Shown here one piece after another: positions 19,478 to 24,211 of a stretch of 30,235 nt of DNA. Each line of letters starts with the position of its first letter. Positions within the stretch are counted from its first letter, which is position 1. This DNA comes from Steroidobacteraceae bacterium (GTDB lineage Bacteria; Pseudomonadota; Gammaproteobacteria; Steroidobacterales; Steroidobacteraceae). The DNA lies in assembly GCA_035571175.1 (NCBI GenBank), contig DATMKO010000061.1:1-30235 (forward strand). Reading direction: 5' to 3'. Under the pieces are notes generated by a model. That model saw only the letters and a program-made list of their open reading frames with translations. It searched no databases and was not told where the DNA came from. Made by a program: the position numbers and the translations under genes.

Positions 19478-19690
19478 CTATCGGGGCGGGTTCAACAGCG
19501 ACTCGTCCGGATCGTGCGCTGACATCAGACTGGCCGTGCCGGGGCTCCATGGCAACTCCTGTTGCCCGAAGCCACCGCCCCAATCCGCCCGCAGCGACGT
19601 TGGTTGAGCCGCGAAGGCGGCGCCGATCGCGAATATTGCCGCAGCCGCCACCGTGACCCTTCGATGATGCATGCCTGTCCCCGGACTCAT
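19478..19690 (-). CDS. Small secreted protein of unknown function (70 aa, or 64 aa from ATG 19672)
   Basis: Signal peptide HHRRVTVAAAAIFAIGAAFA, then a mature part of about 43 aa. ATG 19690 overlaps the upstream stop codon (ATGA), implying translational coupling. Confidence 0.65.
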   Translation of the reverse strand: MSPGTGMHHRRVTVAAAAIFAIGAAFAAQPTSLRADWGGGFGQQELPWSPGTASLMSAHDPDESLLNPPR

Positions 19691-19866
19691 GCGCTGTGCG
19701 GCGGCGTGATGGGCGGGTTGTCCATCAGGGCAACATGCGGCGGGGTGATGGGCGGGTTGTCCATCAAGGCAACATGCGGCGGGGTTATCGGCGGATTATC
19801 GAACATCGCCAAAGCGGAACTGGCCATAGCGCAGCCGGCGATCAAAGCGACTAGACTTACCTTCAT
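19687..19866 (-). CDS. Secreted multi-core peptide precursor (59 aa): signal peptide plus three DNPPITPPH cores
   Basis: Hand translation gives MKVSLVALIAGCAMASSALA-MFDNPPITPPHVALMDNPPITPPHVALMDNPPITPPHSA*. A GGAG SD lies upstream. All 7 variable nucleotide sites among the repeats are synonymous in this frame. It falls below the 60-aa cutoff of the ORF track. Confidence 0.85.
   Translation of the reverse strand: MKVSLVALIAGCAMASSALAMFDNPPITPPHVALMDNPPITPPHVALMDNPPITPPHSA
19696..19800 (-). repeat. Tandem repeat, 39-nt period, three 27-nt cores separated by two 12-nt linkers
   Basis: Units recur at 19696, 19735 and 19774. The cores encode DNPPITPPH and the linkers encode VALM. Confidence 0.95.
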
Positions 19867-20046
19867 AATGAATGCTCCGAATTTGAGTTGTTAAAAGGAC
19901 ACCGACAGGGGATGCCTGCGCGATGTCCTCATAGGTATAAGCGACATCTGTGGATGTTTCCCCTCATATTGGGCTGCGATATATGCTTAGGGGAAAACCT
20001 CAATCTGTATAGTGCCGTGAGCTTTTCCGAGCAACAGAAATAGACG

Positions 20047-20619
20047 ATGCAAGTCCCTGCCAATTTCACGCAGCTATTGACCGAGTGGCGCGCGGGTCAT
20101 CCGCAAGCGCTGGACCGTTTGACGCCTTTGGTATACGACGAACTTCGCCGCTTGGCGCACGGTTACATGCGCGCGGAGCGCGGCAGCCATACGCTGCAGG
20201 CCACCGCGGTAGTGCATGAAGCGTTTCTCAGATTGATCCAGGCGAATGTGGCGCTGGAGGATCGCGATCACTTTCTCGCCCTGGCTTCGCGCCTCATGCG
20301 CCGCGTGCTGGTCGATCATGCCAAGTCGCGTGCGCGGCTGAAGCGCAATGCCGGCATCAGGGGAACTCTCAGCGGCGAAGAAATGGGCAACAATTCGCCG
20401 TCGCTCGACGTCGACGTGATCGCCCTTGATGATGCGCTGGAGAATCTGCTGCAGCTGGAGCCGCGCCTGGCTCAGGTAATCGAGTTGTATTATTTCGGCG
20501 GAATGACATACGACGAAATTGCCGCCGCAACGGGCACCTCATCCGCCACCGTGCATCGGGATATCCGCCTGTCCCGCGCCTGGTTGCTCAATGAAATCGG
20601 CGGCACCCGATCGACATGA
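20047..20619 (+). CDS. ECF sigma factor, TIGR02999/ECF43-like kinase-associated group (190 aa)
   Basis: TQLLTEWRAG..ALDRLTPLVYDELRRLA..HTLQATAVVHEAFLRL..MRRVLVDHA, and region 4 ELYYFGGMTYDEIA..TVHRDIRLSRAWL. It overlaps the kinase start by 4 nt (ATGA). Confidence 0.92.
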   Translation: MQVPANFTQLLTEWRAGHPQALDRLTPLVYDELRRLAHGYMRAERGSHTLQATAVVHEAFLRLIQANVALEDRDHFLALASRLMRRVLVDHAKSRARLKRNAGIRGTLSGEEMGNNSPSLDVDVIALDDALENLLQLEPRLAQVIELYYFGGMTYDEIAAATGTSSATVHRDIRLSRAWLLNEIGGTRST

Positions 20620-23321
20620 TTCCGCGCGCTCGCTGGCAGCAGATTCAGACCTTGTTCGACCAGTTGGCTGATGTCGAGATCGCCGAACGCGCCGCACAAT
20701 TGGAAAAGAGCTGCGGTGACGACACCGAACTGCGCCTGTCGGTGACCTCCCTCCTCGATCTTGATCGGCGGCGCGAGGACCCGCTTCTGGATGCCATCGG
20801 CACGGCCGCCGAGTCATTATTGGAAGATCACCGCGATCGCTTGATTGGTACGCGCGTGGGTCCGTACCGGGTGGTATCGATTCTCGGCCATGGCGGTATG
20901 AGCACGGTGTATCGCGGCGAGCGCGACGACTCGCAATACCAGCAAACCGTGGCGATCAAGGTACTGCAGCATGCCGCATTGCATCCGCGGCTGCGCAGCA
21001 GGTTGCACAGCGAAAGGCATATCCTCGCGACGCTCGATCATACTTCCATCGCGCGCCTGATCGACAGCGGCGATCTGGAGGACGGCACCCCCTACCTGGT
21101 GATGGAACACGTCGACGGCGAATCCATCGACAGCTATTGCGACAGCCGCACCTTGTTCGTTCGCGAGCGCATCGAATTGTTCATCGCGGTATGCGCTGCG
21201 GTGCACTATGCGCACCGCAACCTGGTGGTACATCGGGATATCAAGGCGTCGAACATCTTCGTCACCCACGACGGTACGCCAAAGCTGCTGGATTTCGGTA
21301 TTGCCAAGTTGCTCGCGCCGGAAAGTCTGTCGCACACGCTTCCGGTGACGCGTCTGCAGGAACGGATCCTCACGCCGGAGAACGCCGCGCCGGAACAGGT
21401 TCTCGGGCGGCCCATTACCACCGCGACCGACATTTACGCGCTCGGCGTGCTGCTGTACCAGCTGTTGACGGGCCGATCCCCATATCGGCTGCTCAGCTAC
21501 AGCCAGCTGCAACTGGAGCGGGCCATCTGCATGGACGATCCGGTGCGCCCGAGTCAAATGGTCGTTTCCAAGCTGAAAGGCGAAACCGACGCGGACCGCA
21601 GCCGCATTTCCGATCGCCGCGGCCTCTCTCCGCAGCGCTTGCGTGCCCGTCTGAGCGGCGACCTGGATGCCATCGTCGCCATGGCGATGCGCAAGGAACC
21701 GGATCGGCGCTACCCATCCGTCGAAGCCTTCGCCGACGATCTGCAAAGACACCTGCTGGGACAGCCGGTGCGCGCGCGCCAGGGCGATTGGCGCTACAAC
21801 TCCGCCAAGTTCCTGCGGCGCAATGTATTCGCAGTCCTCGGAGCGGCGGCGGTATTCGTGGGGTTGGTCGTGATCGCAGGCATGACCCTCTGGCAGAATC
21901 ACCGCATCGGAATTGCGCGCGACGCCACCGCCCAAGAACGCGACCGCGCACAGCAGGTATCCGCGTTTCTGGTCGACGTGTTCTCGCAAGCCGATCCTTT
22001 CAATGCCCAAGGCCGGGAAATCACCGCCAAAGACTTGCTGGATCGAGGCGCAGAGAAGATCACCGGCAATGCGAATCTACAGCCTGAAGTGCGCGCGCAG
22101 CTGCTGGAGAGCATCGGTCTTGCGTACCGGCGCCAGGGATTGAACGAGCGCGCCATACCCTTGTTCGAACAAGCGGTTGCCATCCGGCGCGAGGAGCAGC
22201 CGCTCGATAATCGCACTCTCGCCGCAGCTTTGGCCAATTTGGCCCAGGCGTTGACCGGTGCGGGGCATTTGGTGAGCGCCGATGCCTACATGCAGCAAGC
22301 GGTCGCCCTGTCGCAAAGCAGCGATGCGCCGCCATCGGCGGAAACCGCCGACATTCTGGTGCAGTACGGGCATTTTGCTCAAAACGCCAAGAGTGACCCG
22401 GAACTGGCCACCAAGCAGTTTACCGACGCGCTCGCCATCTACCGCAATCTTCCCGGCGATCAGCATTTGTCGATTGCCTCAACCTTGAGTGCTCTTGCCG
22501 GCGCAGCGATTTGGTCGGGCGACTATGTGCATGGCGAGCAGTATCAACGCGAGGCGCTCAACCTGTTTCGCGCCACGGTCAGCCGCAATTATCCCGATCA
22601 CGCCGTGGCGCTGGCGGGCTTGGGCAACATTCTCACCCAGCGCGGCAAGTATGCCGAAGCCGATCAGACCCTCAACGAGGCCTTGGAGATAGAGCGCAAC
22701 GTTTTTGGCCCGGACAATCAGCGGATCGCATCGATCGAGGCCGATCTTGGCGCTTTGTATCAGCGCGAAGGGGACCCGCTTCGCGCCATGGCCTCGACGC
22801 AGGACGCCTTGAGGATCACTACGAGCCGCTTGGGCCCCAATCACTACATGACCGGATACTATCTGGATGCGGTCGCCGACCTTGATCTCAAGAACAATCA
22901 TCTGGACGACGCCGAATCTCATGCGCGGCAAGCGCTCGCCGTATACGCGCAGTCGCTGCCTGCGCGGCATTTATTTGTAGCCGCGACGCGACAGCTGCTC
23001 GGAGAAGTACTTCTGCGCCGCGGCCAACTTGCGCAAGCCGAAGCGGAGGTTCGCGCCGCGCTGGATATCGACCTTGCATTGGCGGGACCCGGAAATTGGC
23101 GCACTGCTCGCACCGAGGCGAGCCTGGGCTGGATCTTGATCGCGGAAGACAAGGCAGCGGAGGGCGAGCCTTTGCTGCTCGAGGCGCAGAAAAAACTCTT
23201 GGCGATGTTGGGCCCGCAGCATCCCGAAACCGCGCAGGCAACCTCGCGCCTCAGCGATTACTACCACGCGCATCACCGCGACGCCGACGCCGCGCAACTT
23301 CATGCGGCCGACAAACACTAG
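20616..23321 (+). CDS. Membrane Ser/Thr protein kinase with C-terminal extracytoplasmic TPR domain (901 aa)
   Basis: Hanks motifs LGHGGMSTVY, VAIK, HRDIKASN, DFGIAK, APEQ and TDIYALG. One TM helix (VLGAAAVFVGLVVIAGMTLW) is followed by roughly 450 aa of TPR repeats. Confidence 0.93.
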   Translation: MIPRARWQQIQTLFDQLADVEIAERAAQLEKSCGDDTELRLSVTSLLDLDRRREDPLLDAIGTAAESLLEDHRDRLIGTRVGPYRVVSILGHGGMSTVYRGERDDSQYQQTVAIKVLQHAALHPRLRSRLHSERHILATLDHTSIARLIDSGDLEDGTPYLVMEHVDGESIDSYCDSRTLFVRERIELFIAVCAAVHYAHRNLVVHRDIKASNIFVTHDGTPKLLDFGIAKLLAPESLSHTLPVTRLQERILTPENAAPEQVLGRPITTATDIYALGVLLYQLLTGRSPYRLLSYSQLQLERAICMDDPVRPSQMVVSKLKGETDADRSRISDRRGLSPQRLRARLSGDLDAIVAMAMRKEPDRRYPSVEAFADDLQRHLLGQPVRARQGDWRYNSAKFLRRNVFAVLGAAAVFVGLVVIAGMTLWQNHRIGIARDATAQERDRAQQVSAFLVDVFSQADPFNAQGREITAKDLLDRGAEKITGNANLQPEVRAQLLESIGLAYRRQGLNERAIPLFEQAVAIRREEQPLDNRTLAAALANLAQALTGAGHLVSADAYMQQAVALSQSSDAPPSAETADILVQYGHFAQNAKSDPELATKQFTDALAIYRNLPGDQHLSIASTLSALAGAAIWSGDYVHGEQYQREALNLFRATVSRNYPDHAVALAGLGNILTQRGKYAEADQTLNEALEIERNVFGPDNQRIASIEADLGALYQREGDPLRAMASTQDALRITTSRLGPNHYMTGYYLDAVADLDLKNNHLDDAESHARQALAVYAQSLPARHLFVAATRQLLGEVLLRRGQLAQAEAEVRAALDIDLALAGPGNWRTARTEASLGWILIAEDKAAEGEPLLLEAQKKLLAMLGPQHPETAQATSRLSDYYHAHHRDADAAQLHAADKH

Positions 23322-23389: not shown

Positions 23390-24211
23390 ATGCCAAACAG
23401 AATCACCTCAGCGTCGAGTGCGCTCATTGCCGCGCTGTTCGTGGCGGGCGCGATTGTAAACATTGCGCACGCCGGCGCTCGCGAAGAGAGCCGCCTGCTC
23501 ACCGCGACCGAAGTGCTGCAGCAAATCAAGGCGATGCCCGATTCGCGAGTGCCTGATGCCCTGCTGGCTCGCGCTTACGGAATCGCGGTTATACCCGATG
23601 TGGGAAAATTCGCCTTCTTCTTCGGCGGCCGCCATGGCACCGGCGTGCTGGCGGTGCGCGATAAATTGACATCCGCCTGGAGTAATCCGGTGTTGGTCTC
23701 GCTGTCCGGCGGCAGCTTTGGTTTTCAATGGGGCGTGCAATATTCCGACATCATTTTGGTGTTCACCACCAAGCGCGGCATTGAGGGGATAGTGGGCGGC
23801 AAGCTTACCTTGGGCGCGGATGCCTCGGTTGCGACCGGACCCGTCGGACGCCAAGGTTCTGCCGCTACCGATATGAATTTGGCGGAAATCTATGCGTACG
23901 CGCGCACGCGCGGCTTATTCGGCGGGATCGCGCTGGATGGCAGCGTGATATCGATCGATAGGTCGGCGAATGCCTCGCTGTACCAAAAGAGCGGCGTAAC
24001 CGCGTCCGAGATCTTTTCTGGAGAGGCTCCGGCGCCTCCGCAAACCGCGCAGCGCTTTCTTGAGGAGTTGGCTAAAGCCACCGGAACCGCGGTGCGCACC
24101 TCGCCCGCGCCGCAGGCGGAAGTATCAGCCGCCCAGGCCCCGGGCAGCGTTCCGCCCAGCGCCCAGCCGGCTCGCACTTTTCCCTTGGAAGAACAGAAAA
24201 AAAATCAGTGA
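23390..24211 (+). CDS. Lipid-binding SYLF (Ysc84/DUF500) domain protein, exported (273 aa)
   Basis: Signal peptide, then AYGIAVIPDV.K..FFFGGRHGTG, GGSFGFQWG, LTLGADASVATGPVGR and IYAYARTRGLFGGIALDG. GAGGAG SD upstream. Confidence 0.9.
   Translation: MPNRITSASSALIAALFVAGAIVNIAHAGAREESRLLTATEVLQQIKAMPDSRVPDALLARAYGIAVIPDVGKFAFFFGGRHGTGVLAVRDKLTSAWSNPVLVSLSGGSFGFQWGVQYSDIILVFTTKRGIEGIVGGKLTLGADASVATGPVGRQGSAATDMNLAEIYAYARTRGLFGGIALDGSVISIDRSANASLYQKSGVTASEIFSGEAPAPPQTAQRFLEELAKATGTAVRTSPAPQAEVSAAQAPGSVPPSAQPARTFPLEEQKKNQ

Follow-up and report, generated by a model that had tools for sequence, protein, structure and literature searches.

The locus and its four genes

The window analysed in this work is a stretch of 30,235 nucleotides of contig DATMKO010000061.1, from a Steroidobacteraceae bacterium (assembly GCA_035571175.1, 3.04 Mb, 76% complete), in which two small genes, named here pepA and pepB, lie head-to-head with the gene of an extracytoplasmic function (ECF) sigma factor and the coupled gene of a receptor Ser/Thr kinase bearing tetratricopeptide repeats (TPR). 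We propose that these genes probably constitute a self-contained four-gene cassette, with pepA-pepB as the output of the sigma factor; this estimate excludes the feedback of the peptides on the kinase, which is weighed separately below. The genes, and the region between the two pairs, are as follows:

19478-19672 (alternative start 19690), minus strand: pepB, coding for a 64-aa (alternative 70-aa) small protein, predicted to be exported or membrane-anchored
19687-19866, minus strand: pepA, coding for a 59-aa precursor with a signal peptide and three repeat units
19867-20046, unstranded: 180-bp intergenic stretch separating pepA from the divergently read sigma gene
20047-20619, plus strand: ECF43-type sigma factor (EcfK/EcfP-like; PF07638, E 1.3e-45)
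20616-23321, plus strand: PknS-like Hanks receptor Ser/Thr kinase, 901 aa (Pkinase 2e-40, TPR_12 6e-39)

The start of the kinase gene overlaps the stop of the sigma gene by 4 nt, and the length of the divergent intergenic region is kept at ~165-200 bp across orthologous loci. A first-pass annotation of this DNA had described two small genes opposite an ECF sigma factor and a coupled TPR-kinase, and had stated that no anti-sigma gene is present. The open reading frames (ORFs) and domains match the former, and the latter is borne out by the domain search of the genes neighbouring the four (GDPD, HiPIP, Ysc84 and SAM_HAT), among which no anti-sigma domain was found.

Related loci are present in metagenome-assembled genomes of soil Steroidobacteraceae and Steroidobacterales (Gammaproteobacteria). 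The search for PepA gave open conserved frames in ~17 species of the genus, and the alignment search for PepB in species-representative genomes gave 41 loci, the two sets overlapping in that some of the species are the same. These loci share the order Ysc84 - kinase - sigma <> pepA - pepB - GDPD - HiPIP. Adjacency within one syntenic block alone is weak evidence for a functional unit. In three congeners (94-98% complete), the cassette genes are all lacking between Ysc84 and GDPD-HiPIP, which are ~200 bp apart, and these genomes have no orthologous kinase, the best matches being paralogues of 35-45% identity. Since exactly these four genes are missing at the Ysc84/GDPD site, kinase, sigma, pepA and pepB form one unit, which is gained or lost as such between Ysc84 and GDPD in the Steroidobacteraceae. 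Similarly, in a second genus of the family, represented by a complete genome, a kinase (923 aa, with TPR) and a sigma factor are encoded divergently from a gene for a signal peptide followed by eight DGSGGGKRPVLQLA copies, after which comes the gene of a 68-aa protein with a signal peptide or transmembrane segment; Ysc84 is again located beyond the kinase, and the genes past the peptide operon are unrelated. One more species of this second genus carries AENNPPMRPLAQF repeats.

Ysc84 and GDPD were rejected as parts of the module, as they are still adjacent to each other where the cassette is absent, and Ysc84 in addition is not found downstream of orthologous kinases in other families. The Ysc84/SYLF-domain protein, which bears a signal peptide, is encoded directly downstream of the kinase in both genera (window 23390-24211; L099:1011-1997), and its gene is probably a marker of where the cassette inserts and not one of its components.

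The sigma factor has the two domains of ECF sigmas, with matches to Sigma70_r4_2 and r2 in addition to PF07638. In its sigma2.2 region the acidic DAED motif is replaced by Q51-A-T53-A (20197-20208), in the context H-T-L-Q51-A-T53-A-V-V-H-E, and the string HTLQATAVVHEAF is kept in 39 of 39 orthologues. The replacement of the acidic sigma2.2 motif, with a Thr at the phospho-site, is the hallmark of ECF43 sigmas, whose motif reads STTA in EcfP and QTTA in EcfK (PMC8999054, PMC13147305). The kinship to ECF43 sigmas pointed to in the first-pass annotation was thus confirmed, by the QATA hallmark with Thr53, by the adjacent Hanks kinase and by the lack of an anti-sigma domain in the neighbouring genes, and Thr53 is a candidate phospho-acceptor at the position phosphorylated in EcfP and EcfK. 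The window's genome also codes for another PF07638 sigma, distantly related (35% identical), whose gene precedes that of a Hanks kinase with 42% identity over 400 aa (G000:C295, L023:1507-3295).

The kinase can be divided into the following parts:

residues 1-83, plus strand: N-terminal extension, from the alignment to 9EED
residues 84-370 (20865-21725), plus strand: kinase domain (Pkinase match at 84-296)
residues 403-426 (21822-21893), plus strand: single transmembrane helix, the only hydrophobic segment
residues 431-901 (21906-23318), plus strand: TPR domain, predicted to be periplasmic (TPR_12 and TPR_10 matches from ~497 to the C-terminus)

Residues 431-901 are placed in the periplasm because the kinase domain is cytoplasmic and there is one transmembrane helix. 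The best PDB match of the kinase is 9EED (Xanthomonas citri PknS residues 1-364), aligned over residues 5-380 with an E value of 2.4e-47, and this alignment takes in the unusual N-terminal extension of ~80 residues of PknS. X. citri PknS is therefore the closest solved relative, extension included, in agreement with the kinship to the EcfK/PknS systems that had been suggested for this kinase, and sigma and kinase together appear to be an EcfK/PknS-type module. By homology with these systems, we presume that the kinase, with its periplasmic TPR sensor, would phosphorylate the intrinsically inactive ECF43 sigma at Thr53.

The promoter-like motif and the output of the sigma factor

The divergent intergenic regions of the orthologous loci are variable except for the pepA Shine-Dalgarno sequence and a conserved block, (C/T)A-N3-TGAGGG(G)AWT-N10-(C/T)GTCGCT, which points at pepA and was found 65-80 nt upstream of its ATG in 33 of 35 loci. 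Its short form, TGAGGG-N15-GTCGCT, keeps a fixed distance from the pepA ATG, and in the window it takes the following positions:

19933-19971, minus strand, first base 19971: bipartite promoter-like motif towards pepA, conserved in orthologous intergenic regions
19961-19966, minus strand: -35-like half, TGAGGG
19940-19945, minus strand: -10-like half, GTCGCT

The distance between the two halves resembles that from -35 to -10 element in ECF promoters, and the motif has no resemblance to a sigma-70 promoter. GTC or CGTC is common in ECF promoters, and the -10-like half contains it here. The predicted start of pepA transcription is near 19933, which would give a 5' untranslated region of ~66 nt.

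Sites with at most one mismatch to the motif were confined to genomes that bear the cassette. With a weight matrix the window site scores 43.6 bits and the next best site of the 3.04-Mb assembly 12.5, so that it is the single match in this genome (76% complete). When near-complete relatives were scanned, allowing one mismatch at most, the motif occurred at pepA and, in some of them, at one further conserved site. Two additional cassette-bearing genomes have the exact motif at pepA, while in three cassette-less genomes there is no exact or one-mismatch match, the second site being missing too. From 29 further genomes of the order we also took the best sigma match of each (46-55% identical), and most of these sigma genes are followed by a gene for a ~900-aa kinase with TPR. 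The motif occurs in divergent orientation within 700 bp at 16 of these 29 loci, and in the orientation of the sigma gene at none of them. The gene that it precedes in these other families codes for a small Gly/Ala-rich single-pass membrane protein or for a small soluble protein. As the motif recurs beside sigma orthologues in other families, it keeps to this lineage of sigma factors, whereas the gene that it precedes varies. We infer that the motif is the cognate promoter of the sigma factor, with pepA-pepB as its main local output. The claim of the first-pass annotation that the sigma drives the peptide genes thus finds strong comparative support in a motif that is conserved, unique in the genome, co-occurring with the cassette and recurring by sigma orthologues. 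The activated sigma would then transcribe pepA-pepB from TGAGGG-N15-GTCGCT, the only target that comparative genomics detects in this genome.

Parts of the locus are contained in four soil metatranscriptome runs from four studies, which we analysed as the word depth of contigs that carry no strand information. The depth over pepA was 24-63, the unique signal-peptide part included (19737-19870/19907), and that over pepB was 5-31 in three of the four runs, whereas sigma, kinase and GDPD showed depths of 0-6; the RNA of pepA was thus 10-30 times deeper than that of its neighbours. One RNA contig (19514-19735) bridges the pepA/pepB junction. The high-depth contigs extend to 19907 and stop short of the motif, a limit consistent with the predicted start near 19933. 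The one sigma-70-like site is excluded as the sole pepA promoter, since it is located downstream of the 5' end reached by these contigs. Carry-over of DNA is an unlikely source of the signal, because it would give a flat depth, and cross-mapping from relatives is disfavoured, as it would boost the more conserved neighbours and not pepA. A variant recurrent in the RNA, 19771 A>G, is synonymous (Val32). That pepA and pepB are real genes and not chance ORFs follows from this abundant RNA, from open conserved frames in >45 related species and from the synonymous differences between repeats described below.

In two runs, RNA contigs of low depth (~3) start at 19936 and 19953 and enter the sigma gene (window 19936-20126). 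Tentatively, the 5' end of the sigma transcript may lie within the pepA promoter region or past it, which would result in overlapping divergent transcription.

A second exact or near-exact copy of the motif is present in some cassette-bearing congeners (L100, G010:C15:221200-223400, minus strand; L101, G022:C3:892050-894200, plus strand; L102, G007:C12:1018600-1020800, plus strand; L118, G006:C110, minus strand), and none turned up in the assembly of the window (76% complete). This copy is followed by a conserved segment of ~95 nt (GTGGGGACACCATG...GGATGGCCAAGGGATTTGGGCATGGCT...) and, in one species, by a GC-rich hairpin. A sigma-dependent small RNA is the likelier product, since the tiny ORF present there changes non-synonymously; an Rfam search at this site gave no match.

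In other Steroidobacterales families (L029-L053), a gene for a 50-90-aa protein is located on the opposite strand, 100-480 bp upstream of the sigma gene. The N-terminal part of these divergent proteins is acidic and rich in Pro, often with D-(D/E/Q)-P-I-P, and their transmembrane helix is rich in Gly and Ala. Several of these loci have a second copy of the motif driving another small gene, such as that of a 62-aa 'TIRIRPF...LSIEIDGRILPLAKF' protein or that of a basic 'DHANKxADR..NPNR' protein. None of the small proteins of these loci is annotated.

The repeat precursor PepA and the small protein PepB

PepA of the window consists of MKVSLVALIAGCAMASSALA followed by three copies of (M/F)DNPPITPPH(VAL), arranged as follows:

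19807-19866, minus strand: signal peptide, residues 1-20 (MK, hydrophobic stretch, A-L-A)
19774-19800, 19735-19761 and 19696-19722, minus strand: the three DNPPITPPH cores of the pepA repeats

Tandem Repeats Finder describes the array as 2.5 copies of period 39 with a 93% match, and all seven nucleotide differences between the repeats of the window are synonymous (7/7). Across >45 species, PepA has a signal peptide of consensus MKxSLxALxAxCAxxSSAFA followed by 1-11 tandem units, each made of a 9-residue core, D-x-x-(P/G/H/Q)-x-x-(P/A/V)-P-(H/R/K/Q/Y), and a spacer of 2-5 residues. A whole subclade has a single-copy PepA, so one copy suffices there. At L013 and L020/L074 the pepA repeat array is a run of N in several assemblies, which may be an assembly gap or masked bases, and at loci with such runs gene callers fuse or miss pepA.

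Comparison of the repeats within each gene (23 genes, 235 repeat pairs) gave 28 amino-acid-changing versus 434 synonymous differences in core codons, and 157 versus 120 in spacer codons. Within genes the core is therefore under purifying selection: selection holds its copies identical while the spacers drift, because gene conversion alone would also erase the synonymous differences. Between species the core varies freely: the 33 loci in which it could be scored have 27 distinct versions. A core that is identical within a gene and different between species implies some specific recognition partner, and this layout is typical of a poly-precursor that would supply one short, species-specific peptide or epitope in many copies. 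We propose that PepA is exported via its Sec-type signal peptide and would present many identical Pro-rich cores, separated by unconstrained spacers, to the envelope or the medium.

A Pfam search assigned no family to PepA. Identical tandem cores are also seen in multi-core precursors of peptides that are ribosomally made and modified after translation (RiPPs), and the repeat of the window contains Met, Asp and His, so that pepA could be either a RiPP precursor of this kind or a metal-binding periplasmic repeat protein, with an incidental link to the sigma and kinase. Both forms of this explanation seem very improbable to us. As a RiPP precursor PepA was rejected, since it has a Sec-type signal peptide instead of a RiPP leader and the cassette, which is made of exactly four genes, includes neither a modification enzyme nor a dedicated exporter, nor a protease. 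As a metal-binding protein it was rejected because Met and His are not conserved, His being replaced by R, K, Q or Y and Met being missing in many species. Moreover, pepAB is present or absent together with sigma, kinase and motif, which argues against an incidental link. A lipoprotein was likewise considered and rejected: Cys12 of PepA is conserved within the genus, with the standard A-x-A signal-peptidase site after it, but the positions -1 to -3 before Cys12 are often non-canonical (C, V, P, N) with respect to the lipobox [LVI][ASTVI][GAS]C, only 11 residues precede it, and the second genus lacks any Cys.

PepB begins with M-HHRR, continues with an Ala/Gly-rich hydrophobic segment (FAIGAAFAAQP) and has a tail of ~40 aa ending in ..PPR. 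A start at 19690 would lengthen the protein to 70 aa and make the gene overlap the pepA stop (ATGA), and the start at 19672 (64 aa) is the likelier one, as orthologues and most gene callers begin at M-x-R-R-R. With a basic and then hydrophobic N-terminus and only ~5 cytoplasmic residues, PepB could be cleaved and secreted or be kept membrane-anchored; in our proposal it would be a small envelope protein co-expressed with PepA. The database search returned 142 clusters, every one of them 'hypothetical', and the Pfam search no family. The alignment of 17 orthologues has a mean column identity of 73%, so that PepB is better conserved than PepA. This conservation would suit a role of PepB, and not PepA, as the feedback element, in which a sigma-induced small membrane or periplasmic protein modulates the kinase in the manner of MgrB and PepA is a separate product of the operon. 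At the corresponding divergent position, sigma orthologues elsewhere are faced by the gene of a small membrane protein, Gly/Ala-rich and single-pass, often behind the motif, and the second genus also keeps a small signal-peptide or transmembrane protein after the repeat gene. However, the correspondence of PepB to the small proteins of other families is one of position and not of recognised sequence similarity, and their topology appears different, the transmembrane segment being C-terminal in those proteins and N-terminal in PepB. We regard this role of PepB as unlikely.

The sensing step and its relation to known systems

What does the TPR domain of the kinase sense? The identity of the periplasmic ligand of the PknS-type kinases was named as future work by the authors of the PknS study (PMC13147305). 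In the four-gene cassette, the extracytoplasmic parts are PepA, PepB and the TPR domain only. Short peptides in extended form, and C-termini, are frequent ligands of TPR domains, and PepB ends in -PPR and the PepA cores in -PP(H/R/K). For the proposal of the first-pass annotation that the TPR domain senses the DNPPITPPH peptide there are indirect hints, in the inheritance of the cassette as one unit and in a core that is identical within each gene and different between species. We hypothesize that the PepA units, the -PPR tail of PepB, or both, might act back on the TPR domain as a self-made cue, positively or negatively. Feedback on the TPR domain would be the most economical mechanism, since this domain is the cassette's only other extracytoplasmic part besides the peptides. 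The result would be a peptide self-sensing circuit in which the 9-residue PepA peptides and the PepB tail are read by the periplasmic TPR domain, in a quorum-sensing-like or envelope-integrity loop; we put it forward as a doubtful, though possible, reading. Complex prediction of the TPR domain (431-901, alignment of 29 rows) with mature PepA (39 aa) gave an ipSAE of 0.00-0.01 and a partner pLDDT of 24-25 for this pair alone, values that speak neither for nor against binding.

Several points weigh against the proposed output of the cassette or against such a feedback. The first-pass annotation had proposed that, if the TPR domain reads the peptide, core sequence and TPR clade should covary. Across 24 loci the distance between cores correlated with the divergence of the periplasmic part of the kinase (r 0.49) no better than with that of the cytoplasmic part (r 0.50), with partial correlations of 0.24 and 0.26 and low power; the correlation between core and kinase reflects shared descent only. 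As regards the feedback step, TPR domains with differences at 26-27% of their positions are found with one and the same core, DDPGVNPPR. In other families the neighbour driven by the motif is not a secreted repeat peptide, so the output of the sigma is not always a candidate ligand. The classic autoregulation of ECF sigmas is missing as well, and regulation of the sigma gene through the motif was rejected, there being no motif upstream of that gene. The motif could belong to another factor travelling with the cassette, and high pepA RNA together with low sigma and kinase RNA would also fit a constitutive promoter. Finally, both the export of PepA and its processing are read from the sequence only.

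Part of this evidence is accounted for if the circuit has no self-sensing, with PepA and PepB acting only as effectors of the sigma regulon, either as an envelope or surface component or as a peptide against other organisms, and the TPR domain sensing an unrelated cue such as envelope stress, a predator or a competitor, as proposed for PknS and PknT. The lack of a covariation specific to the TPR domain is expected under this explanation, as are the non-secreted small proteins driven by the same promoter in other families, and the known ECF43 systems answer external insults, polymyxin and amoebae (PMC8999054, PMC13147305). What it leaves aside is the species-specific core, identical within each gene, which implies a co-evolving recognition partner, and the sole candidate extracytoplasmic partners in the cassette are the TPR domain and PepB. 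We give a role as output only somewhat less than an even chance.

The four-gene cassette is of interest under either explanation. ECF43 sigma/kinase pairs are widespread, and the cassette gives a concrete ligand hypothesis, built on one promoter, one operon and one short, synthesisable, unmodified peptide, of which 27 distinct natural cores among 33 loci allow specificity comparisons. If self-sensing is true, it would provide the first ligand class for ECF43-associated kinases, and a receptor-kinase peptide self-signalling in Gram-negatives distinct from acyl-homoserine-lactone signalling and from the RRNPP and two-component peptide sensing of Gram-positives. Even as output only, PepA would be an unannotated, highly expressed, predicted secreted poly-peptide family of abundant soil bacteria, with an unusually clean selection signature, and the motif would be a usable specificity determinant for this sigma group. 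In the literature searched we found no description of a Sec-exported, highly expressed poly-peptide operon as the output of an ECF43 sigma, of the TGAGGG-N15-GTCGCT promoter motif or of the structure of the four-gene cassette.

The layout of PepA recalls eukaryotic poly-precursors of signal peptides such as yeast alpha-factor, which have a signal sequence and tandem identical units with spacers, a copy number that varies between species and selection on the unit and not on the spacer. Those precursors, in contrast, are cut by known proteases (Kex2 and Ste13), and the processing of PepA is putative. In the RRNPP systems of Firmicutes (Rap, NprR, PlcR, PrgX), a TPR protein is the peptide receptor, a Sec-exported Phr-type precursor is encoded beside it, and the peptides vary between species and strains. 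The RRNPP receptors, however, are cytoplasmic, their peptide is re-imported by Opp and their output is a helix-turn-helix (HTH) domain or a phosphatase, whereas here the TPR domain would be periplasmic and forms part of a Ser/Thr kinase, the precursor holds several copies of its unit and binding of the peptide is hypothetical. Neither an Opp gene nor an HTH is found in the four-gene cassette, and the likeness to RRNPP is a functional analogy only. MgrB, a small envelope protein induced by the PhoQ pathway, acts on the periplasmic or membrane part of the sensor, and PepB and the small transmembrane proteins at orthologous loci are candidates for such a role, although PhoQ belongs to a histidine-kinase two-component system and MgrB has no sequence relationship to PepB.

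The closest known system is EcfK/PknS of X. citri, in which the kinase also has an ~80-aa N-terminal extension, a Hanks domain, one transmembrane helix and a periplasmic TPR domain in ~900 aa (PMC13147305, 9EED), the sigma has lost the acidic motif of sigma2.2 but retains the Thr, and the genes are adjacent with no anti-sigma. Both hosts are Gammaproteobacteria, the order here being Steroidobacterales. EcfK, in contrast, answers to amoebae and controls a cluster for a type VI secretion system (T6SS). A T6SS is lacking here, and the local target would be the operon of two genes that code for the secreted repeat peptide and the small envelope protein. In EcfP/PknT of Vibrio parahaemolyticus, the sigma is inactive until the partner transmembrane kinase phosphorylates the sigma2.2 Thr (PMC8999054). 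The motif is STTA there and QATA here, where phosphorylation is predicted, and the two differ in that the stimulus of the Vibrio system is polymyxin stress, its regulon confers resistance and no self-made peptide takes part.

In the case of microbisporicin, the secreted ribosomal peptide was proposed to activate the ECF sigma MibX via the anti-sigma MibW, raising its own production (PMC4203916, citing Foulston and Bibb 2011). As far as that account goes, the microbisporicin cluster is an actinobacterial lantibiotic cluster with modification enzymes, and its route is through an anti-sigma instead of a kinase-TPR and sigma phosphorylation. The statement of the first-pass annotation that it did not know of such a circuit being described stands for a kinase-TPR/ECF43 system, and does not stand for the general peptide-ECF loop, which had already been proposed in the microbisporicin work as cited in PMC4203916. 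The sigma/kinase half of the cassette belongs to the known ECF43 EcfK/PknS kind, and although a peptide-ECF loop as such has been proposed before, a route through a kinase-TPR would be new.

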